Of a stretch of 64,000 bases of DNA, positions 12,501-37,619 are shown one piece after another. Location of the stretch: contig OZ251226.1 in the NCBI GenBank assembly GCA_965240325.2, positions 1,860,001-1,924,000 of the forward strand. The letters are read 5' to 3'. This stretch comes from Rebecca billardiae RCC1528. Taxonomy: Eukaryota > Protista > Haptophyta. Both the position numbers and the translations under genes were made by a program. The first letter of the stretch is position 1. Every line of letters begins with the position of its first letter. The notes under the pieces were generated by a model, which worked only from the letters and a program-made list of their open reading frames with translations, made no database searches and was not told the DNA's origin.

Positions 12501-12763
12501 CGCACGGGCGGAGCCGTGGCAGGAGTCGAGCTGCGCGTGCGCACACCCGCGAGCGCGCGCGCGCGCGTGCGCACATGTGCGCGCGTTGCAGCCGTGAGCA
12601 CCACACGCGCGCTGTGTGCGATGCGCAGAAGCGCCACCGCGCAGCCGGCGCAGCGCGCAGAGTGGAGACGCGTACGCTCGGCGCGGGGGCACGCGACGCA
12701 CCTGTTCTGCGCATCGCTGCGCTCAGCCCGCTTCGCGGTCGGCGTGCGGCTCTTGGGCTTCAT
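4416..12763 (-). CDS. RRP5: rRNA biogenesis protein RRP5 (multiple S1 domains plus C-terminal HAT/TPR repeats), multi-exon
   Basis: N-terminal EADFPRGGGSVLTPIE; many S1 repeats (e.g. GVVRRVEKFGVFVQLDGARLSGLAHVSEL); HAT region DFERLLLSAPDSSYTWVRYMAWHL, EKRNVWLALLNLE, PKRLDLWSVYLDME, KKMKYVFKRWL..E. Frames switch across GC-rich introns. Confidence 0.93.
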
Positions 12764-12835
12764 CGTGACCGTCGGCACGTATCTTGCGTCGTCACTCTCA
12801 CGGCCGGCGGGTGTGCGTGTGCCCAGGGCCCGAAT

Positions 12836-20138: not shown

Positions 20139-20758
20139 GCACCCACCCACACACCCGCTGACTGGCTTGGCCAGAGCCGACAGAGTGGCCGGAGCACTGG
20201 GCAGCCGCCCGTCTGGCCTGCTTTCGGGCGACGGCTGCCGACTCGCGCGCAGCGGGGCTGCGCGGCTGCAGCTGCGCGCAGCGCCGCCGCCGCCGCCGCA
20301 GCGGCGTGCACGCGTGCACGCAGCTGGAGCGACGGCCTCGCGCGCCGGCCGGCCGGGTCTGCGGACCGCTGGCAGCTGCTGCGCGCGCGGCGCGCTTGTG
20401 GCGGTCTGTCTGCACCCTCAACGCTGTGCCGCCGCCCAGCGCCTGCGCGCGCGCTGGCGGCTGCCGCCTTGCCGGCTGTGTACTTCTCGACCCTCACTTG
20501 GAGTGTGGGGCGCCCTGCCGCATCACTTTGCCTTTGTTTGGCCCCGCGCGCGCCTGACGGGCGCCGCCCATCGCCATTTACGGTCGGACGGTTCCGCCCC
20601 CCTGTGCACCATCTGAGTCCATCATCGATCGCGGACTGCTTCATCATGCTTGTCGAATATGTCGTCCGGAGTCGCGCGCATACATGCGCGACGAATAAGT
20701 ATATATAATTCTTGCCAACCGGCGGCTCCCGATCCGCCGCTAGAATCTTAATCTAGCC

Positions 20759-22161
20759 GTAGCGTCTTAACCCCTATTGTGGAACGGACCCCTATTGTGG
20801 AACGGCGCCAGTTTTTCCTATGTAGAGCTCGGATGTCGCGGAGGCGATGAGATCGGCGGCTACCGCCGTGTGCGCCTGGCCAAGGCGCGTCCAACGAGCC
20901 CAAGAACGTCGCCATAGCCCCACCCCAGCGCCGTCCGCTGCCTATCGTTTGCTGGAGTCAGAGCTGAGAATCTGGTGTGAAAAAATGGTTTTCGGCTCCT
21001 GTAGGCCGAAGCTTCGGCCGGGAGGGCGCGCACGGTATTTTTGGGAGCTCCCCGAAAGCAGCCCGGGCAGGGAATCAAGCCGGCTTGCCGCTGCCGCACT
21101 CGTGGATGGAGCGCGAGTGACACGAATTGGGTCAGGTCAGCATGGCTGATTCCTGGGTTGGAGGGTCGAGGACGCCCCGCCGCGGCGGGGGGCGGTGCGG
21201 CGGCGCGAGCTGACTGGTGGCGATGATGAACGCGTAGCCGAAGGTGCCGGACCGTCAGGCGACGCCCAACCCCGCAAAGCAGCTGCATCGCCTGCCGACC
21301 GCGCGAGAGCCGCGCCGCGCGAAGCGGCTGGGCGCGAGTGGACTACGACCCGCCGGATGCAGCCATCAGGGACTGTGTGTAGAGCGGGGAGCTGGCGTGA
21401 GGGCACAGCTGTCGCCGACTTCGGCTCATATGCCGTGACAACGGGCCACGCTCTGTCGGATGGTGAAGGACCCGACCAGCCCGTCGAGGCCGCTGGGGCT
21501 GAAGCCGCGGCTGAGCGGCTGTGACGGTCGAGCAGATGCACACCAACTGGGTCGCGGAGATAGCGCTACTCGGCTTCGCGCCGACCACGCGGCAGGTCTG
21601 CATCGATGCGGCGCTTCTCTTCCTGCGTAGCGGCGCGCCCTTCTCTTCCTGCGTAGCGGCGCGCCCTTCTCGACGCTCTCCAGCATGCCCTGGAAGCGGT
21701 GGTGTCGGCGGCGGCTCAGGCGCCACGCGAAGGCGAGCGAGCGTCGATGACGGACACGCTCGTCGACCGCATCACTCATCGTGGAGAGGGTTCGCGCGGG
21801 CAAGACGTGCCCCCCGGCGGCTGCGGGGTCGAGGGCGGGTGCCCACACCACCAGCACGCCGGCGAGCGCCAGTGGGCCGACTGCGAACGCTCAGGAGCCA
21901 GCAGTGGCACCGTCCTGAGCGAGGAACCAAAATCGTTCCACAATAGGGGTCAGTCGACCCGTCGACGCACCTCGCGGGCGCGCGCGCGCGCGCGCGCGCG
22001 CGCGGGCTAGTTCCGAGCTCCGCACCCTCAGCGGTGTATGGTCCCTTCGGTAGGACCCATGGCCAGTACCTGACACCTTAAGATCGCTCGCCGAGCCGCA
22101 CTACCTCGCCCTAGGGGCGGAAAACCCGAAAATCGTTCCACAATAGGGGTTAAGACGTTAC
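20759..22161. mobile_element. Non-autonomous TIR DNA transposon (piggyBac-like TTAA|CCCC ends, or a longer TIR)
   Basis: CGTCTTAACCCCTATTGTGGAACG (20763-20786) is the perfect inverse of 22134-22157. The core motif is duplicated at each end (20788-20805 and ~21934-21950). No transposase ORF was recognised. Confidence 0.75.
21615..21671. repeat. 26-bp tandem duplication
   Basis: TTCTCTTCCTGCGTAGCGGCGCGCCC occurs twice, plus a partial third copy. Confidence 0.85.
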
Positions 22162-22363
22162 TGTGAGTTTTAACAACGAATATCAACGATCGCACCGTCT
22201 AATTTAAGTCGTCGAATCTAACAATCTATTTATCATCGTCGCTATTATTATCTGCCCGAGAGTCCGCGTAGACCCTGTGGCCTGAATTACTACAGGCAAT
22301 AATCGCGGGCAATTATTAGGAGCTATGTCACGTTAAGAAGCTGGGGCTTGCTATCTGCGGATA

Positions 22364-22608
22364 GAGAGAGAGGGTATTACCTACTCACCAGGACAGTTTA
22401 CCCCCGGCCGCCGCGCCGTCACAAAATGGCCGGCACTCGCAGGTCATTTTCGCGCATCCGCGCACACCCTCCATCCCTCCCGCCCCTCCGAAATCACCGG
22501 TGTTTGCCACCCGAAACGAGACTGGCAAATGCCGGTGATTTTCGCGCTGAAAACCATGCTTTCACAAGCGAAAATTTAGACGCCACTTCGATACACTGCG
22601 CGCTACGA
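22364..22608 (+). repeat. Left TIR of the viral element
   Basis: Reverse complement of 35968-36212; I count 6 mismatches in 245 bp. Confidence 0.95.
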
Positions 22609-22718
22609 TCCCGCCAAGACAAACCGAGGGCGGCCGCCGAAGCTCAGTTCCAAGGCCGAAGCTTGCGAGCCGGCCAAGAACTACCAGTGATCCAAGGCCG
22701 AAGCTTTCCGGATCTCGC

Positions 22719-23036
22719 TTTTCACCAGGACAGACCAGCGCCCCGCCAGTAAAAACTCGCGAGGCGACCATGATTTTACCGGTGAAGCTTCGGGTCTCAA
22801 CTTTAGAGGCCACTTCGAGCACTCCGCCAGGCAATTTTCACCAGGACAGACCAGCGCCCCGCCAGTAAAAACTCGCGAGGCGACCATGATTTTACCGGTG
22901 AAGCTTCGGGTCTCAACTTTAGAGGCCACTTCGAGCACTCCGCCAGGGTTTTACCACCAGGACAGACCAGCGCCCCCACCAGTAAAAAAAGGCGACCATA
23001 CGGGCGAAGCTTCGGGGGTCTCAACTTTAGAGAGGC
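22719..23036 (+). repeat. Subterminal 116-bp direct repeats (2 near-identical, 1 degenerate)
   Basis: TTTTCACCAGGACAGACCAGCGCCCC... starts at 22719 and 22835; a degenerate copy starts at ~22949. Confidence 0.9.
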
Positions 23037-23237
23037 CGACCATCCCCAAAACATATTTCGATCCGCACTTAAGACTTGGGCCGAGCTCGCGCGACGATGT
23101 CGGCATCCCGGGCGGCCGCCGCCGACCCTCAGCCGCCGACCCGCCATCCGTGGAAAAAACTTAGGACTTGGGGGCCGAGCCAGCGGCGGACCAAAGTGCG
23201 TTAGTTTGCGACGAAAATTTTCTGTGCCAGAGTAAGA

Positions 23238-26200
23238 ATGGTCATCCTCGACCTTGACCGCCGCAACCAACTCGAGCAGGTACTCCTCGACCCCGAGCTG
23301 CCCATGAGGCGGCATGGAGCCGCGCGCCACGAGCTCGACCGAGACCGTCTCGAGAGGCTCTTTGCCGAGTTCAACCTGACGCCAAACGTCGATGGCAAGA
23401 CCTTCGTGCTGCAGGGCAAGCGAAAGCGCATGCCCAGAACGCGCAAGAGCTGGGACCAGCTACGCCGCACGCTCGAGAGGCTTGAGAAGCACCAGCCTAT
23501 GGAGACCGAGCTGAAGGCGATGGGCATCGACCTACAAGGCGGGCAGTTCACGCTCCAAGGGCGCAAGAGACGCCTCCCTCGCACGTCCGAGGGCATGAGG
23601 AAGCTGCGCAAGCAGATTGGATTCACCGCCAAGATGCTGAATGATGGCATGACCAGGGTGGCTGTGCATGGGCCGGAGATCACCAAGGAGACGACCTTCA
23701 CCATGCCAATCTCGATGCAGGTGGAGGCGACGGCGCCTCTGCTCATGCGAGAGCAAGCGCTCTACCAGATGCCGTCGCATCTGACAAGCGCAATCCACGA
23801 CTTTGTCGCTGAGACGATCGAGAAGGAGCTGATGCGCGGAGCATCGAGTCGGCTCAAGGTGAGGGTCATCATCGAGACGCTGCATGTGAAGAGCACCAAG
23901 GGTGTCTTTGCGGTCGAGATGCCGAGCCTGCCCGAGGACGCCTACCGCCGCATGATCGAACGAGGGCACCCCACCATCTCGAAGTCAAGTCGCTCCATTG
24001 CCGGCAAAGCAGTTTGGCAGCAGGAGCCGCAGCCGCTCATCGATCTCGTCAACGAGATGATCACAGACGCCTTCGAGCAGCGGCAGTCAATCTACGCGGA
24101 CAAGCCAATCGCCCTCAGCCGGATGTGGATAACCAGCGGCATGGTGACGCCTCGCGGAGCGACATCCGGGAGCAGCTACGTGAAGCTCGAAGGGCGGTGG
24201 GCGAACGCCAAGATGGGCATCGTCAACCCCAAGAACCAAGACCTCAAGTGCTTCATGGCCGCGCTGCAGGCGGCAAAGGCTGTGGAGAGCGGCGTTGCCC
24301 ACCCCGAGCGGCCGAGCGTCCACCGGAAGTTCCTCGTGACCGAGCCCGAGGGTGCTGTCTACCCTGTGGACATCGGTGAGATCCGCGCATGGGAGGTCGC
24401 CAACAACCTGGCCATCACAGCCTATCGCCTTCCCGAGGACGGTGGGCAGGCGCAGGTGATGCGACTGCCGACGCCGCAGGATTTCCACAACCTGCCTCGG
24501 GTGACCCTCGGGCTCTACAAGGAGCACTGGGTCTTCTGCCGCTCCGCCGATGCCATTTGCGCAAATACCACCTATATCTACTGCGAGCTGTGTCTCAAAA
24601 AGTTCCCGTTCAACGCTCGCGCCAAGCGAGATGAGCATCAGGAGACGTGCCATGACTCGTGGACGGTTAACTACGATGCTCAGACTGAGGAGCAGAAATT
24701 AGCCAGCTACATGACGCCTCGCGAGGCTGCGGCCGGCAAAGATTACCAGACCTCTATCGAGTACACGGGAGGCATCGAGCAGATCGTCAAGCCGCTGGTG
24801 ATCCACGCCGATTTCGAGACCGTGACCATCGACGGTGAGATGAGGCCATATGCCGTCGGCCTCATTGAGACCTGGAGCGACGGAGCCATCAAGTACGTGA
24901 CCTTCACCGGGCCTGAGTGCCATATTGATCTGGTGGTCTACCTGCTGGAGACATACCCGAGCTACCTGGATACTGCAAGCAGGCACTCTGCGCTTAAGAA
25001 ACGCTCCTTCACACATGAGACCCAGCAGGCTTTCGATAGTGCCACCTGCTGCTACCTCTGCGACGGCGAATTCGGCGAGACCAAAAATTTCGACCATGAC
25101 CACTACACTGGCGCATATCGCGGTGCTGCTTGCACAAAGTGCAACCTGCATGCATCCACGACGAATCTCATGGCGAGCGTACCAGTATTCTTTCACAACC
25201 TCACCGGCTTTGACGCCAATTTCCTGATCCAGGCCCTCGGCTCCGAGCGGGTGCAAGGGCTGATGAACGAGATGGCCAGGATAAAGCAGAACCGCAAAAC
25301 GGAGATCCTCAAGAAAAGGATCGAGGCGCAGGAGGCGCTTCTCGTCTCGTGCGCAGTAAGAGGAGACAACTATGACACTGCGCAAATCACCAGCCTCGAG
25401 CGCGAGCTCGCGAGCACGCGCCCCACCAAAGCGCTCAAAACCGACATCATTCTCCAGAACACGCAGCGACTCAAGCAGCTGACTATCGGCGGCTTTTGCT
25501 TCAAAGACACGATGGCTTTCATGAAAGAATCGCTGGAGACGCTCCTAGACAACCTGGACCCCGCGGACATGCGGAACTTGCGCTCGTTTGCCAGCGATTG
25601 GGCGCGAGCCCGAGGACTCGACCCAGAAGTCGTATTCGAGGCCGCGCGGCGCAAGGGCATTTTCCCCTACGAGATTCCGTGGCACCTCGAGCTGGATACG
25701 CCCATTGACACGCTCATCGAAAAATACCCCGACCTCTTCTTGTCCAAGCTTAAATCGAGCTTCGGTATCGCAGGCCAGGACCAACACTTTGAGGCGGGCG
25801 AGGATGAGGCGATCGTCAAGCTCGTGCAACTCAAGTCGGCGGTCGGGCTGGAGACGATGAGAGACCTCCTCGACTGGTACCTCGCTATCGACGTTCACGG
25901 GCAGGCAGACGTCTTCACCAACTTCCAGCACCTCTTTCACACCAACTTTGGCCTGGACCCGAGCTGGTTTCTCTCGGCGCCGCAATCCTTCTTCAAGACG
26001 ATGCTCAAGACCACGGGGCAAAAGATCGAGCTCTGGCAAGACTCGAAAGACGTGGACTTTGCTTCCAAGTGCATTCGAGGCGGCTACACAGATGTGCGCC
26101 ACAAGCTGCAGACGGCAGGAGGAGGCGTGCATATCGGCTACTTTGACGCCAACAACTTGTACGGCTGGGCGATGAAGCTCAAGATGCCAGTAGGCGCGCC

Positions 26201-27512
26201 CTGGGATGTTGAGCCCGAGGACTTTGACCTGCACGACCCCCGGTATGGGCGGCTACCGAGTGACCCCGGCGACCTCGATTTCCAAGGAGACATCGGAGCG
26301 TATGTGGAGATCGATGGCTACTATCCGGAGCACACGCACCAGCGCCTCAACGATTTTGTCCCGCTGCCCGAACACAGGGACGGCAAGCTCATCGCGCACC
26401 TCGACCCACGCGTCAACTATGTGTGCAGTGTGCTGAATCTGCAGAAGGCAGTCGAGCTCGGCTTTGTCGTGACAAAGGTCCATCGCGTGCTAGAGATGCA
26501 TCTAGCACCGTGGATGCGCGGCTATGTCGACCAGATGGCTGCGCTGCGCGCCCAGGCGAGAAACGACTTTGAGAAGAATTTCTTCAAACTAGGCCCGAAC
26601 TCGTGCTTTGGAAAAACCATGGAGCGCACGCTGCACCACCAGGATGCCGGCATCGTCTCTGGGAGTGTGATGGAGAAGCGCTTCCTCGACCCGCGCAGCC
26701 GGTACTCGAGGCATATCGGCGGCTCGCTCTTTCTCGTCTCTGGTGACAAGAAGCGATACCTCAAGACTACTCCTGTTCAATTGGGCGCGCTCATCCTTGA
26801 GAGCTCGAAGCTGCTCATGCAGACCTTTTGGTACGATGGCCTCAAGCCGGCGCTTCCAAACATCCAGCTCTGCATGACCGATACCGATTCCTTCATCTTC
26901 TCGGTGAACGACAAGAATTACAAGCACAAGATGAAAGAGCTCGCGCCGCGCTGGCTTGATATGCATGGCTACCACAAGCGCAACCCGATGCATGATGCCT
27001 CGAACCAGAAAGTGGTCGGCTACTTCAAGGACGAGTTCGCCAACGACCGCATTTGCGAGGTGGTGTGCAACGCGCCGAAATGTTACTCGGTCAGATCGAC
27101 AAAGAAACAGCTACGCAAGAACAAGGGCGTGCCATACAAAGTGGTGACGAAAGCACTGCAACATGGTCACTATCGCGATATCGTCCTCCGCGAGAAGGAG
27201 ACACACGTAGAATACTACCAGATTGCGCCGCGCTCGAATGTGGTGAGGATGGAACGCCGTGAGAAGGTGGCGCTCCGAAACTCGTACAACAAGGGTGTCG
27301 TGGCTGCGGACGGGCTGGAGATCCTATCGCTGGGCCACTACAAGCTCGATCCAAGGAGACACTTTGAGCGAATTATTCGGACACATGATTGGGACACGCT
27401 CACAGCAAGGAAGGCAGCGCAAATCATGGTCGACGAGTCTGGCTACGACGTGAGCCTCAAGTGGGCCAACCGAATAATGAACGAGTTCGTCACAGCTTGC
27501 TTGACGGGCTGA
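23238..27512 (+). CDS. polB: Protein-primed family B DNA polymerase (Maverick/Polinton type) with vOTU-like, zinc-finger and endonuclease VII-like domains
   Basis: Exonuclease motifs IHADFET, FHNLTGFD and YLAIDV; KGIFPYE; IRGG; polymerase motifs YFDANNLYGWAM, KLGPNSCFGK, TDTDS, FKDE, PKCY and KGV. CYLC...DHDHYTGAYRGAACTKCN is EndoVII-like. NPKNQDLKCF...EHW is a vOTU-like Cys/His pair. Confidence 0.95.
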   Translation: MVILDLDRRNQLEQVLLDPELPMRRHGAARHELDRDRLERLFAEFNLTPNVDGKTFVLQGKRKRMPRTRKSWDQLRRTLERLEKHQPMETELKAMGIDLQGGQFTLQGRKRRLPRTSEGMRKLRKQIGFTAKMLNDGMTRVAVHGPEITKETTFTMPISMQVEATAPLLMREQALYQMPSHLTSAIHDFVAETIEKELMRGASSRLKVRVIIETLHVKSTKGVFAVEMPSLPEDAYRRMIERGHPTISKSSRSIAGKAVWQQEPQPLIDLVNEMITDAFEQRQSIYADKPIALSRMWITSGMVTPRGATSGSSYVKLEGRWANAKMGIVNPKNQDLKCFMAALQAAKAVESGVAHPERPSVHRKFLVTEPEGAVYPVDIGEIRAWEVANNLAITAYRLPEDGGQAQVMRLPTPQDFHNLPRVTLGLYKEHWVFCRSADAICANTTYIYCELCLKKFPFNARAKRDEHQETCHDSWTVNYDAQTEEQKLASYMTPREAAAGKDYQTSIEYTGGIEQIVKPLVIHADFETVTIDGEMRPYAVGLIETWSDGAIKYVTFTGPECHIDLVVYLLETYPSYLDTASRHSALKKRSFTHETQQAFDSATCCYLCDGEFGETKNFDHDHYTGAYRGAACTKCNLHASTTNLMASVPVFFHNLTGFDANFLIQALGSERVQGLMNEMARIKQNRKTEILKKRIEAQEALLVSCAVRGDNYDTAQITSLERELASTRPTKALKTDIILQNTQRLKQLTIGGFCFKDTMAFMKESLETLLDNLDPADMRNLRSFASDWARARGLDPEVVFEAARRKGIFPYEIPWHLELDTPIDTLIEKYPDLFLSKLKSSFGIAGQDQHFEAGEDEAIVKLVQLKSAVGLETMRDLLDWYLAIDVHGQADVFTNFQHLFHTNFGLDPSWFLSAPQSFFKTMLKTTGQKIELWQDSKDVDFASKCIRGGYTDVRHKLQTAGGGVHIGYFDANNLYGWAMKLKMPVGAPWDVEPEDFDLHDPRYGRLPSDPGDLDFQGDIGAYVEIDGYYPEHTHQRLNDFVPLPEHRDGKLIAHLDPRVNYVCSVLNLQKAVELGFVVTKVHRVLEMHLAPWMRGYVDQMAALRAQARNDFEKNFFKLGPNSCFGKTMERTLHHQDAGIVSGSVMEKRFLDPRSRYSRHIGGSLFLVSGDKKRYLKTTPVQLGALILESSKLLMQTFWYDGLKPALPNIQLCMTDTDSFIFSVNDKNYKHKMKELAPRWLDMHGYHKRNPMHDASNQKVVGYFKDEFANDRICEVVCNAPKCYSVRSTKKQLRKNKGVPYKVVTKALQHGHYRDIVLREKETHVEYYQIAPRSNVVRMERREKVALRNSYNKGVVAADGLEILSLGHYKLDPRRHFERIIRTHDWDTLTARKAAQIMVDESGYDVSLKWANRIMNEFVTACLTG

Positions 27513-28410
27513 ACGATGACGACGGCGACGAGAACCGAGGTGTGGGATCGTACGGGATGACCTTGAGGAATGCCTTCGCCGCGTTTTCAGATACATTAAA
27601 ATCTCTGGCCAGCATCTTGCTCAGAGCTGTGCGCGATTCTTTCGGGTTGGCCTGCATCATGAGTATGATGGCATCGATGTTGTCGTCAAGGTGGTCTCTC
27701 GCTTCATTTCCGAAGAGCGGTTTTGAGGCCTGGGTGCCAGCCGTCTGCTGGGATGGCTGCTCCTGTGTGCCCATGGAACGCCTCTTTGGACCGCCAGCCT
27801 GCGTGCCAATCGCCGGGCGCTCTGGCACCCCCTGAGTGCCAGTTGAACGTCTCTTTGGACCGCCAGCCTGCGTGCCAATCGCCGGGCGTTCAGCCGGAGG
27901 AGGCATCTCCTGAGTACCCATGGAGCGTCTCTTGGTGCTCGCCTGAGTACCTGTAGAGTGCTGCTCTGGCCGCAGGTTCCGAACGACTCTGTCCGTCTCA
28001 ACACCAATCGATCGCCGCTCTGGCACGGCGCTTGTGGAGACAGGCAGAGGCTGCTTGTTTACTATGAGTCTGCTCATGGCCTGACCAGACGCATCGCGTG
28101 TAGGCAGGCGAATCTGCCGAGCACGAAATTCGTTGACACCATCGCTAAAGGGGAGCAAGGAATCGATGGAAGGCACTCGCCTGCCCACTGCAGCCGTCTG
28201 GTTTGTGGGCGGCGGTCTCGTGGGCTTGATCAGCGGCTTCATCACAATCGGCTCGGCCGAATACGTCAATCGTCTCGAAGACGGCGTAGGCACGGATCCG
28301 CTCCAGTATTCTTTCCCTCGGCTGTGAAAGGAGCCTCCATACGGTTTGCCCTCGAGCCGAAAATGCGTGGTCTTGGTCGGCAGGAATCGCTCGCGATGTA
28401 TGGCCTGCAT
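27490..28410 (-). CDS. Viral hypothetical protein with seven GTQ repeats
   Basis: 306-aa ORF whose ATG directly abuts the ATPase stop; contains a 69-bp internal DNA repeat encoding ERPAIGTQAGGPKRRS(T/M)GTQ. Confidence 0.75.
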   Translation of the reverse strand: MQAIHRERFLPTKTTHFRLEGKPYGGSFHSRGKEYWSGSVPTPSSRRLTYSAEPIVMKPLIKPTRPPPTNQTAAVGRRVPSIDSLLPFSDGVNEFRARQIRLPTRDASGQAMSRLIVNKQPLPVSTSAVPERRSIGVETDRVVRNLRPEQHSTGTQASTKRRSMGTQEMPPPAERPAIGTQAGGPKRRSTGTQGVPERPAIGTQAGGPKRRSMGTQEQPSQQTAGTQASKPLFGNEARDHLDDNIDAIILMMQANPKESRTALSKMLARDFNVSENAAKAFLKVIPYDPTPRFSSPSSSFSPSSKL

Positions 28411-29106
28411 CTATAATAGTAATGATAATTTATTCCACTCTCTGTGGAGCGTACCATGGTCTGCATTAAGAAATAAAAAAGTGTGCGGATCGCCATCGCC
28501 AAAAATGTACTGATACACTGTAGCAAAGTCTGAGCGAGGCATCATGATCAATTCAGAGCGCAGAGCCTCTAGCTCCTTGGTATTGTTGGGCTTGAACACG
28601 GTCACATGCGAGAATAATTTTCGTATAGTCAGTGGCACCGATATGTAACCCTGTGATATAACAATGATACTGAGTTTGTAGTGTCGCCTGTTCTGAACGA
28701 TACGCGAATACAGGCGTTGTAAATTTGGGTCTTTTAGTGACGCAGCAAAATCATCTATAATAAGGAGCGTCGGCAAAGGCATATTCGACTCGGCAATGCT
28801 GAGCACATTCTGAAGTGTCTCTGCCGTCAGCTCGTGGTACACATATTGGAGCGTGGCTAGCGGGGAATTTTGGAAGCTGTCCACCGAGGTGCGAGGAGCC
28901 ACGAAGATTACGTTGGCAAAGACTCGTTTATAGGGCCCAGTGATCAAGCCCACTACCTGGCTGGATTTGCCGCTACGGGGTGGGCCAAAGACGCCCCAAT
29001 GAAAGCTCGTGTTTGGGAGAGGCTCTGGCAGGCCTGGCTTTAGAGGCTTGTCCGCACTGATTCTAGGCAGCGGGAGCTCTATGTGATGCGCGATCTCGTT
29101 GATCAT
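28411..29106 (-). CDS. A32-like (FtsK/HerA) genome packaging ATPase
   Basis: Walker A GPPRSGKS, Walker B LLIIDD, and NRRHYKLSIIVISQ...IR typical of Polinton/PLV ATPases. Confidence 0.92.
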   Translation of the reverse strand: MINEIAHHIELPLPRISADKPLKPGLPEPLPNTSFHWGVFGPPRSGKSSQVVGLITGPYKRVFANVIFVAPRTSVDSFQNSPLATLQYVYHELTAETLQNVLSIAESNMPLPTLLIIDDFAASLKDPNLQRLYSRIVQNRRHYKLSIIVISQGYISVPLTIRKLFSHVTVFKPNNTKELEALRSELIMMPRSDFATVYQYIFGDGDPHTFLFLNADHGTLHREWNKLSLLL

Positions 29107-29432
29107 ATAAACCGCATGATTCTTTTTTGGGATGTCTTGACAGGGGTCACCTCCGGGGTCACCGCCTCTGGGGTCACCTCTTCCTCGCCTGCCAGCTCGA
29201 TCGATTCGACCGGCTGCCTGACAATGCTCGGCGGCGTCTTGCTTGGTGGGCGCCTGGGTGTGGGTGCTTTTGGCCCGACCTCGCCGCCGATTTCTTCGAG
29301 CTTGGCTTTCGCATCCTCTGCCAGCTTGGTGTATGTGGCCGCATGTGTCTCATATGTCACAACCTGGCGTTTCAGGCGCATGCGCTCCGTCGCCAGCTGC
29401 TGCGCCTCGCTGCGTGTCTTTTTATTCTCCAT
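29103..29432 (-). CDS. Viral hypothetical protein (coiled-coil N-terminus, VTPE repeats)
   Basis: 109-aa ATG ORF whose stop overlaps the ATPase start (ATGA). Confidence 0.6.
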   Translation of the reverse strand: MENKKTRSEAQQLATERMRLKRQVVTYETHAATYTKLAEDAKAKLEEIGGEVGPKAPTPRRPPSKTPPSIVRQPVESIELAGEEEVTPEAVTPEVTPVKTSQKRIMRFI

Positions 29433-29545
29433 CTTCTATATGCAAGCAGAGAATATTTTGGATTTCAGCCGAGAGGATGCATTGGCATGGTACATCTCCA
29501 AGAAGCTCGGCACGAGCGATGATGAAATAATATCGGCACTAATTC

Positions 29546-30283
29546 ATGCTGCACCTGCACACGACAAGTCAGGGCGATGTGTTCCCACTGGGCCGAGCCA
29601 AGACGAGCTGCGTGAATTTCACACTGAGCCACCCAATCATGGCGGCAAGCGATGAGGTCATATTTGTATCTGTCGATAGCCTGTGTGTGCCTAATACGCG
29701 CTATGCCGTAGACAGCTCGAATAATAGCGTGGGTGCCGCCTCCGACTGGGGCGACACAACGCTCACGCTCACCCCGAAGAATTATACCGCTAGCACGCTA
29801 GTCACGGAGATCAACTCGGCATTGTCTAGCATCAACGTGACTGCTGCTTTCGACTCGGCCACTGGCAAGCTTACATTCTCGACGTCACATGGTTTCGACA
29901 CCACCATCAAGGGCACGAGCAGCGCTTCGCGCGTGCTCGGCCTCTGTCGCACAGACTTGGTAATACCTGCTGGCGGCAGTATAGAGGCACCCGGCGTGGT
30001 GGACCTGCTCAGCCGAGGCTTTGCGCTAACCTGCGAAGGGTTGGATGTCAAGAGCAGAGACTCGTCCAACTCGGGCTCATCAAGCAATATTTTGTGCGTG
30101 GTGCATATCGACAAGCCTTTCGGCCAGACTGTACTGTACACTGATGCGAACAATGACATTTTGCAGTGCAACCGCCGGAGTATACAAAATATCGAGCTCC
30201 AGCTGATCGATCTCGAGACCATGCAGCCGGTGGAGCTGAATGGAGCCGAGTGGTCTGTCAACCTGAAATTCCAAATTTCTTAA
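29546..30283 (+). CDS. Minor capsid (penton) protein
   Basis: Beta-rich 245 aa directly upstream of the major capsid gene; PLV penton-like motifs VPNTRYAVDSSNN, KNYTASTL and IQNIELQLID...ELNGAEWSVNLKF. Confidence 0.8.
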   Translation: MLHLHTTSQGDVFPLGRAKTSCVNFTLSHPIMAASDEVIFVSVDSLCVPNTRYAVDSSNNSVGAASDWGDTTLTLTPKNYTASTLVTEINSALSSINVTAAFDSATGKLTFSTSHGFDTTIKGTSSASRVLGLCRTDLVIPAGGSIEAPGVVDLLSRGFALTCEGLDVKSRDSSNSGSSSNILCVVHIDKPFGQTVLYTDANNDILQCNRRSIQNIELQLIDLETMQPVELNGAEWSVNLKFQIS

Positions 30284-30308
30284 GAAATATTTCCTGGCCA
30301 TAGTACTT

Positions 30309-31622
30309 ATGGCTTACGCCGGCAAGCGTGTGACGAACGATATTCGCGGTGATGACGCGATGGTGCTCGAGCAGGAGGAGACGGCTCCGAGCTACTATGA
30401 CTTCTCAAACCCCAAGCCCGTCGCCGTTGGCGCTGCCTACAAGAGGTCGACGATATATGCAGGCCCGTCGTCTAGCTTCACAAGTGGCCAGGTGATGCAA
30501 TTCGATATCCCGACTGGCACGCCCGGCGCGATGATGGACCCGTCGCAGACAGTCCTGCAGTTTACAATCCACAACACCTCTGGCCAGCCTCTCACGCTCT
30601 CAAGGTCTGCATACTCGTGCATCGAGCGCATTGACGCCTACCACGGCAGCCAGATGATCGCAAGCACTGGCAAGGCAGGCCTGCTGCACAATGTCTTGCT
30701 CGACTTCCAGTCGGGCGCATCTTCGGGCTTCTCCACCGGCAGCATGCTGGGCTGTGCCGACTACGAGATGCCTGCCGCATATGCAGCCGCCGATGTTGAG
30801 AGCGCGCTTTACCCGACAACCGGTGAGACAATTGCCAACAATGCCCGGAAGACGGTTACCCTCCCACTCGCGTACGTGTTTGGCGCTCTGTGTGGTAAGG
30901 CGGTGCCGCTCTCTGAGCTGCACCAAGGCCTTCGTGTGGACATCCATGTGGCCAACATGCTCGACTTTGGCGTGTATGATGCCGACCCAGGCACTACCTC
31001 CCCCACGCTTGAGACGGTCAAGATGCAGCTCGGCATGGTCATGCTGAGCGATAGTGCCTACACCAAGATGGTTCGCTCGCTCGATCGGATCTACATCCCA
31101 TCGATGTCCTACCTCCATGCCTCCCACTCGGTGGCTGCAAACACGTCGACGGCCTGGCAGTTGCCGTTCCGCCTGGCCTCGGTCAACATGATCATCCTGG
31201 CTGCGGTGCCGAATACCAGTGAGAACGCCTTTGGTGGCGACATCACGACTCGCACGCGAGCGGCGCTCACCAAGTGGCAGTTGCGCATCGGCTCTACCCT
31301 CGTGCCGGATCAGCCAGTCTCTGCCACCCACGGCGGCGCAGAGACGCGCGCTGAGCTCGTTCGCGCCTTCAACGCGCTCGGCATTGCCGATTATGCCTCT
31401 CGCGTGAGCGGCACGGCCTTTGACGATGCGGCTTTCTGCATCGCCTTCAACACGAGCGCCTTCTCGCAGTCCGACATCCTCTTCGACGGTCGCCGACTCG
31501 ATACGGAGTACGCCATCTTTGAGGCGGACACGAACAGCGGGGCATCTTTCAAGTGGCATGCCTGGGCGCTCCATGATGTGATGATGGGGGTCTCACAGAA
31601 CCAGCTTAATTTCGCCATTTAA
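30309..31622 (+). CDS. Major capsid protein (double jelly-roll, PLV type)
   Basis: 437 aa; N-terminal SFTSGQVMQFDIP..GAMMDPSQTVLQF and SCIERIDAYHGSQMI resemble PLV major capsid proteins; size and gene context fit. Confidence 0.85.
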   Translation: MAYAGKRVTNDIRGDDAMVLEQEETAPSYYDFSNPKPVAVGAAYKRSTIYAGPSSSFTSGQVMQFDIPTGTPGAMMDPSQTVLQFTIHNTSGQPLTLSRSAYSCIERIDAYHGSQMIASTGKAGLLHNVLLDFQSGASSGFSTGSMLGCADYEMPAAYAAADVESALYPTTGETIANNARKTVTLPLAYVFGALCGKAVPLSELHQGLRVDIHVANMLDFGVYDADPGTTSPTLETVKMQLGMVMLSDSAYTKMVRSLDRIYIPSMSYLHASHSVAANTSTAWQLPFRLASVNMIILAAVPNTSENAFGGDITTRTRAALTKWQLRIGSTLVPDQPVSATHGGAETRAELVRAFNALGIADYASRVSGTAFDDAAFCIAFNTSAFSQSDILFDGRRLDTEYAIFEADTNSGASFKWHAWALHDVMMGVSQNQLNFAI

Positions 31623-31639
31623 TTTCGCTCTATATATAC

Positions 31640-31933
31640 ATGAGTTTTCTAGGTAGACTCGTTAGAGATGCGCGCGGAAAGATCGGCGGGCTGGCTAACA
31701 CCGCCCGAAGGCTCGGCAGACCTATCAGCTCTGCAATCCATCACCTAAAGCCCTGTGTAGACAAGGTGGGTGGGGACGTCACCCAATTCTTGAACGAAGT
31801 CGATCGCACCGAAGGCCTCGGTGATATCGCCTCACCTTATACGGCCGCTGGAAGGCGGGCCATACAGCGTGGGCGTCAGATCTCCAACCGTCTGGACCAG
31901 GGGGCTCGCAGAGCCGACCGGTTTCTACGCTAG
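31640..31933 (+). CDS. Small basic amphipathic protein (candidate membrane-lytic or core protein)
   Basis: 97 aa, Arg/Gly-rich, N-terminus MSFLGRLVRDARGKIGGL; immediately after the major capsid gene with an AT-rich leader. Confidence 0.65.
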   Translation: MSFLGRLVRDARGKIGGLANTARRLGRPISSAIHHLKPCVDKVGGDVTQFLNEVDRTEGLGDIASPYTAAGRRAIQRGRQISNRLDQGARRADRFLR

Positions 31934-32542
31934 GCGGTGCTGCTCTCGTAAAAAGCGGATTGGGCGCGTGAACGCGTCTGCGCTGATGCGCCCGACCGTC
32001 TTCCGACTGCCCCCTCGCTGAGTGAGCGAGAGTGCCGACACGATATCGCCTGGAGAGCGGACATCGAATTGTGTCTTTGGTAAGACCTTTCCGATATCCT
32101 TCAACCCAGCACCTTTTTGGGATGTATGCACCTGAGCTGCGCCAGAGTTTTCGGCTATGTGCCCGCCCAAGCTGTGGCCCATGGCTGACGTCACGCCATA
32201 TTTTCGCCGCACAATCTCGACCAGCTTTCGGGCTCGCTGGTGGCGCGGATCATATACAGAGAACCCGAGCGCGAGTAGCACATCGGACACTGCCCAGTCG
32301 GCAAAGCTGACACTGCCTCGAAATAGGACTAGCGGCCGGCCTGATGCTATGTGCACCAATACCTTGTCTTCGTCAGACGAGAGTCTGACGTCAAGCCGAT
32401 ACCGCGGCTTTACGTGCTCGCGCGCCTGCTCGAGCGTCATGTATGATGCTTCTAGCAACATGCGCCTGTCTTTTTGGAGGGTCGTCCCCGAATCGAATAG
32501 CATGCGCTCGCCTTCCTGGGTTGAGATGGTGGGGATATTCAT
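31925..32542 (-). CDS. Lipase class 3-like alpha/beta hydrolase
   Basis: VLFRGS..DW, nucleophile elbow GHSLGG and DIVS; a common PLV/virophage accessory gene. Confidence 0.85.
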   Translation of the reverse strand: MNIPTISTQEGERMLFDSGTTLQKDRRMLLEASYMTLEQAREHVKPRYRLDVRLSSDEDKVLVHIASGRPLVLFRGSVSFADWAVSDVLLALGFSVYDPRHQRARKLVEIVRRKYGVTSAMGHSLGGHIAENSGAAQVHTSQKGAGLKDIGKVLPKTQFDVRSPGDIVSALSLTQRGGSRKTVGRISADAFTRPIRFLREQHRLA

Positions 32543-32556
32543 ATTACTGCACAGTT

Positions 32557-33189
32557 TTATTTGCGAGGCCTGAGCATCCTGAAGCCGTGAGCCGAGCGGA
32601 CTGGGTGCCCGCTCGTGGCGTCTACAATGTTTGTGACCTGCGCTCGCCTGTCTCTCTGGCTACGCGTGCGACGGATGGCTCCAGTAGGGATGACTGAGGT
32701 TTGCTCCACAGCCGGCTGGCTGCCACCTCTGTGAGTGATCGAGCCCTTGTCATTAAAAACATACCAGTTCCCCTCTGTTTGCCTCCGCACCACCGCCATG
32801 AGCAGAGCCAGGAGCGGCCGAATCTCAGGCCATGGTGCCCCGCTTTGTCGCCACTCTTTATCCCGGAGAGGCTTGACAAAACTGTAGCCTGGATTCGTGC
32901 GAGCGAGAAGCCGATCCTCCACATCTTTGGCCAGGTTGGGGCTCGTCACAAGGAATGCCAGTAGCTTGAAGCTGCCTGCAGCATAGGGCATGCTATGCCT
33001 GTACCCAGCGAAGAGCCTACTCCGAATATTTTTGGTCATTCCCATTTTAAACAGGGGTCTCTTGCCAGCCCATGTTGGGTGGATCACATACACGCCGGCA
33101 ATCTTTTTGTCCTTGTCAGCGAAGCCCGCATTTTGCAGCGCAGCCTTAAACTGCGTATACTCCTTCTTTAGCGGGTCAGTGATACGCAT
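32557..33189 (-). CDS. GIY-YIG (T5orf172/MUG113-like) nuclease-domain protein
   Basis: GVYVI...FKMGMTKNIRSRL...VEDRL...KEW. The ATG at 33189 avoids overlap with the divergent gene at 33212. Confidence 0.7.
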   Translation of the reverse strand: MRITDPLKKEYTQFKAALQNAGFADKDKKIAGVYVIHPTWAGKRPLFKMGMTKNIRSRLFAGYRHSMPYAAGSFKLLAFLVTSPNLAKDVEDRLLARTNPGYSFVKPLRDKEWRQSGAPWPEIRPLLALLMAVVRRQTEGNWYVFNDKGSITHRGGSQPAVEQTSVIPTGAIRRTRSQRDRRAQVTNIVDATSGHPVRSAHGFRMLRPRK

Positions 33190-33211
33190 ATTATTATATG
33201 GCTTATAATAT

Positions 33212-35329
33212 ATGGCGAGCATCTTCGGCCTAGTTTCATCATCATCATCAATCAGCTGGAGTGGCGAGGTGCTCACGTACCCAGCAAGCTCGTCTATAAC
33301 TATCAATTTCGTTCCGCCACTGCCCGATGCCGACCTGAAAATACGGGTTTCCCATCCCAGGCATGTATTCACTGTGACGAGCGCGAGCATAACTCCATCG
33401 AGCGCCACTGTAGTCTGGACAGCAGACAATTATGAGAAGGTCGTGAATCGCCAATATGATCATGAGTATAAGCCCTATTTCAGCGTATATTCTGGTGATA
33501 CTCTACTGACCAGCTTTGATCACACGGGTACGCTATATCATGGATCGATCGAGTCTGGCAATCTGATTACCCAGTCCATTCTCACTGGCCCCACAGTGGC
33601 TCATTTCCCGCTGACCGCAGACCTGGTTGATACCACTCCCCGCGCTCAGAGCCTCGTGCCGGCTGGCACGTTTGCCTTTGCTGAAGACTCCGCGCGCTCA
33701 ACGGCCAATGCGAGCACGCTCACGCTCCAGACACCGGGGCACGACTGGCGGGATTTTAGTGCGGCTTTTTTCCTGAAGGGCTGCCCAGGCCTGAGTAAGC
33801 TCTCACTAGGCGGTGGGCTCTCGTACGCGAGCGCTGAGCTGGACTCGAACATCATCGCTAGTAGCAGTGTCGGCTTTGTAGACGACGTGAGCCAGATGGT
33901 CCCAAGCGGTGTCTGGACACACTTTGTCATCTCGCAGGAAACCACGTCTTTTGAGGCGAATATCGAGATCTATGCGGACCAAACGCTCCTCCACTCTCGC
34001 ACTATTGGCCAACAAACGGACCCGGATTTCAAGCGGATTTCGCTCTACTACCCACTCGTCGCCACGCTTGACGACCAGGCTGCGCTCGCGCAGCTGAGCA
34101 TATATCCATACGCTCTCGATGCGGCCGGCCGCCTGGCGCACGCGCAGTCGTGGCCTGGGTATGTCCTGCGGTACACATGGCTGCTCGATGGAGACTTGCT
34201 CGAGGTGGACGGTGCCGCCGCCGCGCTGCAGCCCACAAATGGCGATTATGTGATGACGAGCGGTTACCTAGAGATGCAAAATACTAGTACATTGCATCTC
34301 GGTCTGAATGAAATGCCCGACATGCAGGGCAGCGAGCGCTTCTCGCTTGCGGCATGGACCTACCGCCCGAATAACACCGATGCCGTTCGCATGTGGCTCC
34401 TCGAGGATGGCGTCACCGACTTCACTTTCGAGATCATCGGTGGCCAGCTGCGCTCTGAGCTGGGCGCGACAGCGTTTCAGGACTTGGCAGGACCGGCACA
34501 TGGAGAGTGGCACCACATTGCGCAAACAGTGGATGGCACCACGTCCAAAGTGTACATCGATGGTGTGCTGGTGAGTACTACCACGCTACCAGCCAGCTTC
34601 ACCCCGCTGCTCAGCATCATCGGGCACAGAACCGCGCCTATGACCGCAGGCGTGCGACTGTATGCCATGACAATCGCGCGCGGGATCATCGATGTGCCGA
34701 CGGTGATGAATTTGTACTCGCCGATGCAAGGCTTAAATCCATTTGCCAGCTGGCCGATGACGACGAATTTGACCGATGATGTTGGCAGCTATGCTTTCAC
34801 TGTATCCAGCGGCACTGCAACGCACACCAATGGCTATGCTGATCTCAGCAGCTCGGTTGTGATGACAGCGCCAGTACCGACGCAGACGATGACGATGTTT
34901 GGGTTCTCAGCGTGGGTTTATGTCGACAACGTCTCAGGCTCATTCAAACTCGAGTGGCGCAATACAGGCTCGAAGGTCGTTCATTTTTACATCTACCGCA
35001 ACGGCGTTGGGAACACCGCGTTTGGGTTCGATATCACAGGGCAGTCTGGTAATTTATACGACCGAGTCGATGTTTTGCCGCTGAACACCTGGTATCATAT
35101 TGCTTGGTCTTATACAGTGGGAGGCAACATGGAGGCCTGGTTGAACAAGGTATCGCTCGGCGTTGAGGCCATGAGCGCCACTGCCGTGGGCGATGTCAAC
35201 GAAATTTACGCGAGCACGCCCCCAAGCGGCGGTCCATTCAAGTGTGCTGCAGTGCGCTTCTACACCGAAGGTGCGATCACGCAGGCCGAGGTCGATCGCG
35301 ACTATGACCTCTTCACGCCTCCGCCATAG
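33212..35329 (+). CDS. Multi-LamG/concanavalin A-like domain protein (candidate fibre or receptor-binding protein)
   Basis: Three LamG-like signatures: GVWTHFVIS, GEWHHIAQTVDGTTSKVYIDG and NTWYHIAWSY. Confidence 0.8.
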   Translation: MASIFGLVSSSSSISWSGEVLTYPASSSITINFVPPLPDADLKIRVSHPRHVFTVTSASITPSSATVVWTADNYEKVVNRQYDHEYKPYFSVYSGDTLLTSFDHTGTLYHGSIESGNLITQSILTGPTVAHFPLTADLVDTTPRAQSLVPAGTFAFAEDSARSTANASTLTLQTPGHDWRDFSAAFFLKGCPGLSKLSLGGGLSYASAELDSNIIASSSVGFVDDVSQMVPSGVWTHFVISQETTSFEANIEIYADQTLLHSRTIGQQTDPDFKRISLYYPLVATLDDQAALAQLSIYPYALDAAGRLAHAQSWPGYVLRYTWLLDGDLLEVDGAAAALQPTNGDYVMTSGYLEMQNTSTLHLGLNEMPDMQGSERFSLAAWTYRPNNTDAVRMWLLEDGVTDFTFEIIGGQLRSELGATAFQDLAGPAHGEWHHIAQTVDGTTSKVYIDGVLVSTTTLPASFTPLLSIIGHRTAPMTAGVRLYAMTIARGIIDVPTVMNLYSPMQGLNPFASWPMTTNLTDDVGSYAFTVSSGTATHTNGYADLSSSVVMTAPVPTQTMTMFGFSAWVYVDNVSGSFKLEWRNTGSKVVHFYIYRNGVGNTAFGFDITGQSGNLYDRVDVLPLNTWYHIAWSYTVGGNMEAWLNKVSLGVEAMSATAVGDVNEIYASTPPSGGPFKCAAVRFYTEGAITQAEVDRDYDLFTPPP

Positions 35330-35350
35330 ACTAAAAATCATGTCATATAA

Positions 35351-35590
35351 ATGAAAGCTTCGACCCGCAAGGGTAAGCGATACGAGTACAAGGGTGTGCA
35401 TTTTGGTGCCAAAGGCGGCAAGACGTATATAGACCATGGCGATGATGCCATCAAAAAGGCCTGGATCGCAAGGCATCGCGTGAATAAAAACTGGAACAAC
35501 CCCAAATCTGGGATTTACTACAGCCGTCATTTGCTGTGGGGCCCGACAACGAGCCTGCAGAAAAACCTGGAGATACTACATGGACGATAG
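35351..35590 (+). CDS. Small conserved viral protein (DUF5754/Tlr6F-like)
   Basis: Pattern STRKGKRY...VHFG...YIDHGD...ARH...SGIYYSRHLLW, recalled from PLV/virophage/NCLDV small proteins; the family name is from memory. Confidence 0.6.
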   Translation: MKASTRKGKRYEYKGVHFGAKGGKTYIDHGDDAIKKAWIARHRVNKNWNNPKSGIYYSRHLLWGPTTSLQKNLEILHGR

Positions 35591-35893
35591 GCCGCCTCCA
35601 TCGGCCGTCTTCAGCGCCGAGTGCGTGCTCAGCTGCATATCTGAATTGCTATCTTCCTTGTTTTGCCGAGGATGACGCTCGCGCCAGAGTGCCTGACGTT
35701 TCTTGAGCAGCTCCCGGTTGCATGCGATGCAGATCTTGGCTCGGTAAACACGCTTGTTCTTGCGACGGTAGTTCATCTCGAGTGCGGGCACGTATTTCTC
35801 ACATGCTTTACAGTGGGCGTACAGGCCCTTGAACTCGGCTGGATTCTCTGGGCCCATGCGACCATCCTCGACGGTCGTGAAGGTGGTCTTCAT
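35576..35893 (-). CDS. Small CxxC-CxxC zinc-finger protein
   Basis: CKAC...CIAC followed by a basic helix; ATG at 35893 is in frame with ORF 35576..35902. Confidence 0.6.
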   Translation of the reverse strand: MKTTFTTVEDGRMGPENPAEFKGLYAHCKACEKYVPALEMNYRRKNKRVYRAKICIACNRELLKKRQALWRERHPRQNKEDSNSDMQLSTHSALKTADGGGLSSM

Positions 35894-35967
35894 ACTTAAC
35901 ACCCCGCAGAAATTATTTAGCCACCGACCACCCGCTCGCCACTATGGCGGTTGGGTGGTGGCTGGCC

Positions 35968-36212
35968 TCGTAGCGCGCAGTGTATCGAAGTGGCGTCTAA
36001 ATTTTCGCTTGTGAAAGCATGGTTTTCAGCGCGAAAATCACCGGCATTTGCCAGTCTCGTTTCGGGCGGCAAACACCGGTGATTTCAGAGGGGCGGGCGT
36101 GATGGAGGGCGTGCGCGGATGCGCGAAAATGACCTGCGAGTGCCGGCCATTTTGTGACGGCGCGGCGGCCGGGGGTAAACTGTCCTGGTGAGTAGGTAAT
36201 ACCTTCTCTCTC
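35968..36212 (-). repeat. Right TIR of the viral element
   Basis: Inverse of 22364-22608. Confidence 0.95.
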
Positions 36213-37619
36213 GTATCTGGCCTAGGAACTGAGACTAGCGATTGGCTGGTTCGCTATACGCATCTAGATCTAGTCACACTAAGAAACCGGGACTACGTCG
36301 CCCGCGGCCGATGAGTGGTCCGCCGAGGGCCCGAGGCGCAGTCCCCGTGGGATGCGGCGCGCGGCCCGACTACGACGGTACAGGCTAAGTCCCGACTGAG
36401 TCTCCTGATGACTGACTCCTGGCCAGTGCACCGCAGCATCCATGCAACATCATGCCAGATTTGCTGCATCAACTAATGGCCCAAAATTTTCTTGGGCCTC
36501 GCCGGCCGGGCCTAAAGACTCACGGTCGGGGGGCTCTGCCCCCCTGCGCCCCCCGCGTCTGCGCGGCGGGCGGACCTAGGCCTAGCTAAGAAACTGAGAC
36601 TCCGTAGGCGCTCGGGCTACCGAACTGCTAAGAAACCGAGACTAGCCGTGAGATCTCTGACTTCTTATTGCCCGCGATTGCCTGTAGACTGACGATCATC
36701 GGAATGCATCATTTATCATTTAATTATGGCCCGCGGTGCAGGGCGGAGCGCGCAGCGTGGAGCCCGCACCAGCGGGCCCGAACCACGTTTCAAAAAGATC
36801 TTTGATCAAGAAAAAAGGGACGGGGGGCGATTTTTAGGGCTGGCGGAGACCGAGTTTCGAGTTTTTGAGATCGCATAGAGAGGTCTATTAGGCCGAAAAT
36901 AACCGCGCCCAGCTGATTCCCTTAAGTAAAGTGCGATCTGGACGTCAGCTGGACGTGACATTAGTGTAACGGTTCGTTACGAGCGCGATTTTGTGGGTAG
37001 ACTCTCGTTCATGTGTGATAGTTTGCCTCCGCCTTGATGAATATGAACTTGGCTTCGCGGCGGTTGGTATCTAGAGTCTAAAACCCGCAAGCCTTATTGA
37101 AAATACCCGCGCAGCTATTCGTTGCCAGCCCATTCCATAGTCACTGACTTACCGAGCTGGCGAGCTCAAAACCTGCCGCCGTCGCAAGCACGTGACGCGC
37201 AGGTTCCTTCGGGGTGGCGAGCGAGCCGCGACGACTCTTGGTCCAAGCCTCCAAGGGGGCGCTCGATGGGCAGGTGCGCGTGGCAAGTGCCGAGTGGCGC
37301 CTGGAGCGCGCGTCTGCGGCGGGTCCCGACGGCCGTCGACATCGCGTTCGTGCCCGCTCACTAGTCACTCCGCACGCCCCTGCCGCGCCCTGTCGATGCC
37401 TGCGCGGCCGGCCGGCGCGCGGCCGCGCCGCCGCCGCCGCAGCCGCCGCCCTGTGTTCGGGCTCTCGCAAGCTCGGGGGCAGCGGCGCATGATGCCGGAC
37501 TGATCGATCTCTGAGTCTCCGACTTCACCACACGCCCCCCTTGCCATGCCTCTCCGCCAGGGTCTCCCAGAACTCTTCTTCAGAGCAGGCGCAAGTCGAA
37601 CTCGGAACTGGCCGCGGCC

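Follow-up and report, generated by a model that had tools for sequence, protein, structure and literature searches.

How does a virus that encodes no recognizable integrase come to lie in a host chromosome, and what did its insertion leave behind? This question is raised by a locus of the haptophyte Rebecca billardiae RCC1528, located in a window of 64,000 nucleotides (contig OZ251226.1, positions 1,860,001 to 1,924,000), which denotes here the whole stretch of DNA that was analysed. The initial annotation, made from the letters of the window, described an integrase-less, Polinton-like element that ends in (AG)n, is flanked by a 6-bp target-site duplication (TATCTG) and carries a possibly templated 5-nt insertion at its left end. 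It read this arrangement as an integrase-type footprint, which would suggest a helper acting in trans, or as a repair-mediated junction.

The Polinton-like nature of the element and its (AG)n termini are supported. Under the boundary model favoured below, the endogenous Polinton-like virus occupies positions 22363..36214 (13,852 bp, unstranded), and its twelve main ORFs, five of which have a weak assignment or none, cover 90% of it. Its GC content is 57%, as compared with 72% for the remainder of the window, the latter value marking the host as a GC-rich eukaryote. The left end is followed by a DNA polymerase B of the protein-primed kind (pPolB) with 1424 aa (23238..27512, + strand; PF03175, E 1.9e-13), which includes an endonuclease VII domain (PF02945, E 8.5e-6). 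Its 243 homologues reach 30-37% identity at best, and some of them come from animal genome assemblies. The EndoVII domain is common among these homologues and is hence no peculiarity of the element, and residues ~300-470 are likewise common to other pPolBs. When metagenome contigs were scanned with the polymerase, 30 loci were returned, all short and distant (23-34%) and sharing no further gene. On the opposite strand lies a repetitive basic ORF of 306 aa (27490..28410, −), without a match in Pfam, PHROGs, the Atlas or the recombinase profile described below; a repeat with a 69-bp period is found inside it, at 27728-27933.

The morphogenetic genes follow. An A32-like packaging ATPase is found at 28411..29106 (−; PF04665, E 1.1e-4), with 16 homologues carrying a precomputed PF04665 assignment. 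The next gene (29546..30283, +) probably encodes a minor capsid protein, a label drawn from its match to PF19254 (DUF5901, E 1.2e-6) and from its place between the ATPase and the capsid gene; its homologues adjoin the ATPase in viral loci. The double jelly-roll major capsid protein (437 aa; 30309..31622, +) is related to capsid clusters of the Atlas at 0.98, and its AlphaFold model (pLDDT 84) leads Foldseek to PBCV-1 Vp54 (E 2e-18, TM 0.66). No close capsid relative was found in the searches, the best being 37% identical besides one identical record, and the capsid alignments were too diverged to serve for locus searches.

The remaining genes begin with a lipase-like protein (31925..32542, −), with phmmer matches to ORFs of viral loci (E 7e-11); the syntenic ORFs in three loci are Pfam Lipase_3. 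An ORF of 277 aa (32557..33390, −) has no match in Pfam, PHROGs or other database searches, and we take it to carry a GIY-YIG/T5orf172-like motif. A LamG-domain protein (33212..35329, +; PF13385, E 1.2e-21) is likely, judging by its domain, a fibre or receptor-binding protein. It is followed by a DUF5754 protein (35351..35590, +; PF19058, E 9.9e-9), which has 42-55% identity with ORFs in viral loci, and by a zinc-finger ORF of 105 aa with weak endonuclease matches (35576..35893, −; phrog_2340, E 5.8e-4).

In terms of classification, the element has the double jelly-roll capsid, the A32 ATPase, the TIR-bounded size and the GC content unlike that of the host that characterize Polinton-like viruses (PLVs), its 13.85 kb lying at the bottom of their 14-40 kb range. 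With Maverick/Polinton elements it shares the protein-primed PolB and the (AG)3//(CT)3 ends (the left one exact, the right one with an additional base). Their rve integrase and maturation protease, however, were not found in it, and it lacks their 6-bp duplication, this last point resting on one run and probably paralogous copies. For the adenovirus-like maturation protease, no match was obtained in 88 ORFs with Pfam, nor in PHROGs, searches that remote homologues could escape.

The element is integrase-less as far as Pfam, PHROGs and a profile of its relatives' recombinases can tell, in agreement with the initial annotation. Among 88 stop-to-stop ORFs of at least 70 aa, Pfam gave no match to the rve (at E<0.5) or phage-integrase families, and no integrase appeared among the 15 ORFs searched against PHROGs. 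Pfam is a weak test for PLV recombinases, its Phage_integrase model recovering only one of 16 recombinases of the relatives, and a dedicated profile was therefore built from the relatives themselves. These were obtained through an alignment search with the ATPase, which led to 58 viral loci (IMG/VR) with ATPases of 27-34% identity. The capsid family is common to 51 of the 58, while the pPolB is matched by none; six of eight large loci examined carry a D5-type helicase (53 of their 108 ORFs were scanned). A conserved ORF of ~300 aa occurs in 19 of the 58 loci, many of them near-duplicates, and in nine of the twelve loci of at least 15 kb. By its predicted model (pLDDT 85), which matches XerA, XerH, Cre and the Tn1549 integrase by fold, this protein is a tyrosine recombinase. 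By sequence, its alignment yielded one weak match to a PHROG integrase and no match among PDB sequences. The profile of the 19 recombinases had no match at E<10 in the 1115 six-frame segments of the window. A cryptic recombinase in the 306-aa ORF or in polymerase residues 1-300 is unlikely.

Further observations concern the viral loci. Screening those of at least 12 kb for TIRs revealed no full-length termini. Three recombinase ORFs are ~130 aa longer than usual (L015:2932-4191, L050:2062-3354 and L017:235-1530), and three of the 16 members of the recombinase alignment also match GIY-YIG; this suggests fusions of GIY-YIG with the recombinase among these viruses. In a locus of the same capsid family, L040:5309-6846 encodes a papain-family protease with propeptide together with a Tet/JBP-like oxygenase. 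The capsid-family profile matches two neighbouring frames in L016, L021, L027-L031, L033, L046-L048, L051-L054 and L057, which suggests that the capsid gene may be split or intron-interrupted in those loci.

At the junctions, the letters reported by the initial annotation are correct. TATCTG is present at 22352-22357 and at 36214-36219, both copies agreeing letter for letter; the left end reads CG-GATAG-AGAGAGAGGGT; the right end, in reverse complement, reads CG-AGAGAGAAGGT; and GATAG (22360-22364) is the reverse complement of CTATC (22351-22355). Relative to the edges of the ungapped TIRs, the hexamers sit 6 nt (left) and 1 nt (right) outside. When slack of at most 7 nt per side is allowed, chance produces a 6-mer match for 2.3% of flank pairs drawn at random and for 256 of the 3892 single positions in the host (6.6%); without slack, a 6-mer flank match has a frequency of 0.06%. 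The CTATC/GATAG hairpin presents a z of -0.61 in comparison with shuffles, 40 of 200 of which fold as well. The idea of a hairpin or templated insertion was dropped, as folding is at the level of shuffles and the empty-site contigs leave no 5-nt insertion.

The form of the uninterrupted site was taken from the contigs of one public run, X1 (share 0.28 of the stretch). Aligning them to positions 20000-38500 at a likeness of 80 produced 119 records and five joints. Among these five listed joints two span the element, and none fits a 6-bp duplication. The first spanning joint leads from 22360 to 36215, skipping 13,854 nt, with ends AT..GT and a 2-base ambiguity (AT); its contig has a depth of 27.6 and a short side of 35 letters. 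The second spanning contig passes from 22355 to 36219 at a depth of 2, with 22 letters on the short side, and its printed middle letters contain CTGCGGATCTG.

Three models of the duplication were computed for comparison with these joints. A 6-bp TATCTG duplication predicts a joint 22351->36214 (skip 13,862, ambiguity 6), a TA duplication predicts 22361->36214 (skip 13,852), and an AT duplication predicts 22360->36215 (skip 13,854, ambiguity 2, ends AT..GT). The AT model alone accounts for the first joint and contains the printed letters of the second contig. Hence, the uninterrupted host carries ATCTG twice, three bases apart (TATCTG-CGG-AT-CTG), and both contigs are compatible with a 2-bp duplication of AT at a host GATC site. 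Before the insertion, the locus very probably read as these uninterrupted copies do, a reading that depends on a single run whose copies are probably paralogous.

Some properties of X1 define how these joints are to be read. For the contig of depth 27.6, the letters that lie between its two sides are marked "not known", and joints with a likeness below 95 or a side of fewer than 30 letters often represent repeats or other organisms. The core of the second contig is flanked on both sides by extra letters that have no explanation. A 2-bp match of the AT type is weak alone, AT making up 6% of flank positions. Four substitutions at 36301-36330 share the depth of 27.6, while the left-flank contig has a depth of 5.85; the deeper contig is probably a paralogous, diverged copy rather than a derivative of the locus, depth in X1 not being copy number. 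Excision footprints keep a residual claim as the source of the element-skipping contigs.

X1 also provides observations on the neighbourhood. Its depth rises to 28 in the bin 36042-36658 and amounts to 28-76, with many variants, over 36042-38500, as compared with 0-8 per bin elsewhere in 20000-38500; by this depth, the repeat-rich region runs on beyond the small host repeat. X1 contigs match the virus exactly at 28395-28716 and at ~96-97% at 23207-23715 and 29511-29849, hinting that the run may hold more than one variant of the virus. The bins without cover, 32340-33573, carry no evidential weight.

The AT model fixes the boundaries as follows. Host DNA at 22352..22360 (+) comprises the first ATCTG copy (within TATCTG) and CGG, which the joint 22360->36215 keeps, as does the second contig. 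The left copy of the doubled AT, at the centre of the host GATC, lies at 22361..22362 (+), as given by the 2-base ambiguity and the AT..GT ends of the joint. The left TIR (22363..22608, +) begins with (AG)5 and equals the right TIR (35968..36214, −) in 240 of 247 aligned columns, the latter ending in (CT)n with an additional G at 36213. The right copy of AT (36215..36216, +) and the second host copy of ATCTG (36215..36219, +) are placed by the X1 joint and the model comparison. The second TATCTG is thereby completed by the last base of the element, the T at 36214. Without gaps, the inverted repeat extends over 245 nt at 98% (22364-22608 / 35968-36212); overall, the TIRs are ~246 bp long and 97-98% alike, the right end mirroring the left plus one extra base. 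This likeness and the long open frames suggest that the insertion may be recent. Behind the left TIR, non-coding direct repeats of ~116 bp occupy 22719..23032 (+; self-BLAST, 89% identity). Exact TIR patterns had no matches in viral contigs and none in metagenome contigs.

In terms of end fit, the AT model asks for a single additional base, on the right, against CG ends and five added bases in the 6-bp model. The claims of the initial annotation that depend on the hexamer fare accordingly. The 6-bp duplication gives way to one of 2 bp (AT), as the element-skipping contigs keep CGG-AT-CTG between the hexamers. The CG termini find no support, the AT model having the left end coincide exactly with the start of (AG)5, and the supposed insertion GATAG consists of the host G, the doubled AT and the first AG of the element. 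The initial annotation had proposed looking for a single TATCTG in uninterrupted copies of the host repeat, and two of the five X1 joints speak against it there. Since the 6-bp duplication falls, so does the integrase-type footprint that was built on it; the alternative of a repair-mediated junction stands as the best explanation. Because uninterrupted copies already hold both copies of ATCTG, the hexamer near the Polinton-like ends belongs to the host repeat: both copies are likely pre-existing host sequence and not a duplication made by the insertion.

The host repeat interrupted by the virus spans 22293..36684 (unstranded) and would measure ~540 bp without it. It has imperfect terminal inverted repeats starting with CAGG, a TA on each side and four copies of an internal 15-nt motif; by these hallmarks, we take it to be a MITE-like repeat of the Tc1/mariner type. 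Its TIR is found once in the window at up to three mismatches. A further element of 1,379 bp is located at 20771-22149, with inverted ends CCCCTATTGTGGAACG, TTAA on both sides and partial inner copies of its end at ~20791 and ~21929; it is presumably piggyBac-like, again by hallmarks. Given that it ends 143 bp left of the host repeat, the insertion site is a cluster of mobile elements. Elsewhere in the window, two RCC1-repeat genes on opposite strands (11624-14374, +, and 51820-53775, −) are 76-84% alike over 139-206 nt, and this pair explains the long inverted repeats I2 and I3 of the window.

As to how the virus entered, the leading explanation, which we hold tentatively and at somewhat less than even probability, is that the host's end-joining captured a whole linear viral genome at a break with a stagger or a microhomology of 2 nt. 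The protein-primed polymerase would make a linear genome from the (AG)n ends, and this genome would reach the nucleus. The host DNA would break with a two-base stagger across AT, inside the GATC of the small repeat; fill-in of the break and its ligation to the viral genome at either end would then account for the two copies of AT, with a single additional base at the right end. The role of the (AG)n ends would lie in protein-primed replication, and they would be silent on the integrating enzyme; end repeats have been tied to jumping-back protein-primed replication, with (AG)3//(CT)3 as the Maverick end motif (PMC8097293). All of these steps are drawn from one insertion. End-joining is favoured because it needs no unseen helper and accounts for a duplication this short as well as for the uneven right end. 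It is weakened by the near-intact viral ends and by the absence of any loss of host bases, both more enzyme-like than typical repair, and by the recombinase of the relatives, which could have been supplied in trans.

That recombinase forms the basis of the main rival explanation, which we consider unlikely yet worth retaining: a circular or end-joined form would have been integrated by the tyrosine recombinase of a sister virus living in the same host, the shared AT being the minimal crossover identity and the odd one or two end bases the coupling sequence. Besides its presence in the 19 loci described above, in a set that largely shares the capsid family, Tetraselmis is reported to host both the recombinase-bearing S2x and the pPolB-bearing S3b viruses (bioRxiv 2025.10.09.676808), recombinase-type PLVs mostly come without duplications in the available part of PMC12220804, and IntDOT requires just 2 bp of identity (PMC2817482). 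The window, however, holds no helper, the relatives are as distant as their ATPases indicate, none of them matches the pPolB, most of those examined have the D5-type helicase instead, and no circle junction is present among the five X1 joints listed.

The chances are slim that an rve/DDE integrase from a Maverick-type helper acted in trans and produced an unusually short 2-bp duplication. The (AG)n//(CT)n ends are of Maverick type (PMC8097293), the polymerase homologues include the proteins from animal genome assemblies, and duplications of EMALEs range from 1 to 9 bp (PMC8547959). Nevertheless, the usual rve duplication is 5-6 bp according to the accessible portions of PMC12220804, PMC8547959 and PMC8097293, PMC12220804 giving 6 bp as typical, and the element has no rve while its right end is off by one base.

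Slimmer still is the prospect that the element's own GIY-YIG-like nuclease cuts GATC-like sites with a 2-nt stagger and that ligation by the host then takes in the complete protein-primed genome, a route of integration free of any integrase, in which case 2-bp duplications would be the signature of the family. Below it ranks the model of the initial annotation, now very improbable, in which TATCTG is a true 6-bp duplication, the termini are CG, a 5-nt templated insertion is present and the element-skipping contigs are excision footprints or repeat variants. The hexamers are exact and 6 bp is the Maverick length (PMC8097293); an excision footprint could retain both copies, and the contigs probably do not come from the orthologous allele. 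Yet the joint it predicts is matched by none of the five listed, the contig with the joint looks like a diverged, deeper copy and not like a derivative of the locus, the hexamer match has a chance frequency of 2-7%, the hairpin is not significant, and offset TSD-like matches are termed coincidental in the available text of PMC12220804.

A cut by the element's own nuclease at this site, whether the GIY-YIG-like ORF or the EndoVII domain of the polymerase, with a 2-nt stagger and ligation finished by the host, is more doubtful again: the family of the 277-aa ORF is assigned by motif, with no database match, EndoVII is common in polymerase homologues, and there is one site only, against which stand the real EndoVII domain (PF02945), the 2-nt 3' overhangs left by GIY-YIG enzymes (PMC2761285) and a proposal that GIY-YIG helps PLV integration (PMC12721341). 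Finally, a TA duplication (22362-22363 / 36214-36215) made by a Tc1/mariner-type transposase of the host repeat itself is permitted by the window letters and the TA-flanked repeat, but its predicted joint fits neither spanning contig and we give it hardly any credence.

Integrated PLVs without a recognized integrase are already known, among them Ca_PLV1 (PMC11296320) and Tsv-S3b (bioRxiv 10.1101/2025.10.09.676808). Tsv-S3b of Tetraselmis striata resembles the present element as an endogenous PLV with TIRs, a Polinton-like pPolB and no recombinase listed in the available text, and its S2x sisters have a D5 helicase-primase and a tyrosine recombinase, a split that parallels the one between the element and its relatives. 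It differs in its size of 18-19 kb, its 583-bp TIRs and its demonstrated reactivation; a junction analysis is absent from the text available (bioRxiv 10.1101/2025.10.09.676808). Ca_PLV1 and AHEV_PLV1 are likewise PLVs without a detectable integration gene, one of them integrated, for which the authors propose cryptic functions or help in trans; unlike the element, they have insect hosts, and the accessible text contains no empty-site comparison (PMC11296320).

Maverick/Polinton elements share the pPolB, ATPase and capsid genes, the TIRs and the (AG)3//(CT)3-type ends (PMC8097293), whereas in the element, of 13.9 kb, neither an rve integrase nor a maturation protease was found and the 6-bp duplication is missing. 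The IMG/VR loci with tyrosine recombinases have the capsid family, the lipase and DUF5754 in common with it, and the cryptophyte tyrosine-recombinase PLVs are alike in that a long duplication of the genuine kind is missing, and TSD-like matches displaced from the TIRs are reported as misleading in them (PMC12220804, text available in part). Unlike both groups, the element has a pPolB and no recombinase. The comparison extended to partial texts of PMC10120064, PMC12721341, PMC7805220, PMC3212892, and bioRxiv 2022.07.28.501842, 2026.07.28.741278 and 2026.06.19.733378. This literature, as available, showed no integrase-less PLV whose filled and empty sites had been compared base by base; the supplementary TSD tables of PMC12220804, PMC8547959 and the bioRxiv reports may hold cases.

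The element is thus a further integrase-less, pPolB-bearing Polinton-like virus, of a kind already described in integrated form, with a footprint resolved to 2 bp. A single insertion does not settle the mechanism, which for such PLVs is called unknown in the available part of PMC12721341. The locus carries a warning, as a perfect hexamer beside Polinton-like ends can be a host repeat, and calling a duplication with no empty site at hand can be misleading. It also offers a base-level comparison of filled and empty sites for an integrase-less PLV, which makes the question of how these viruses enter the genome testable on further copies.
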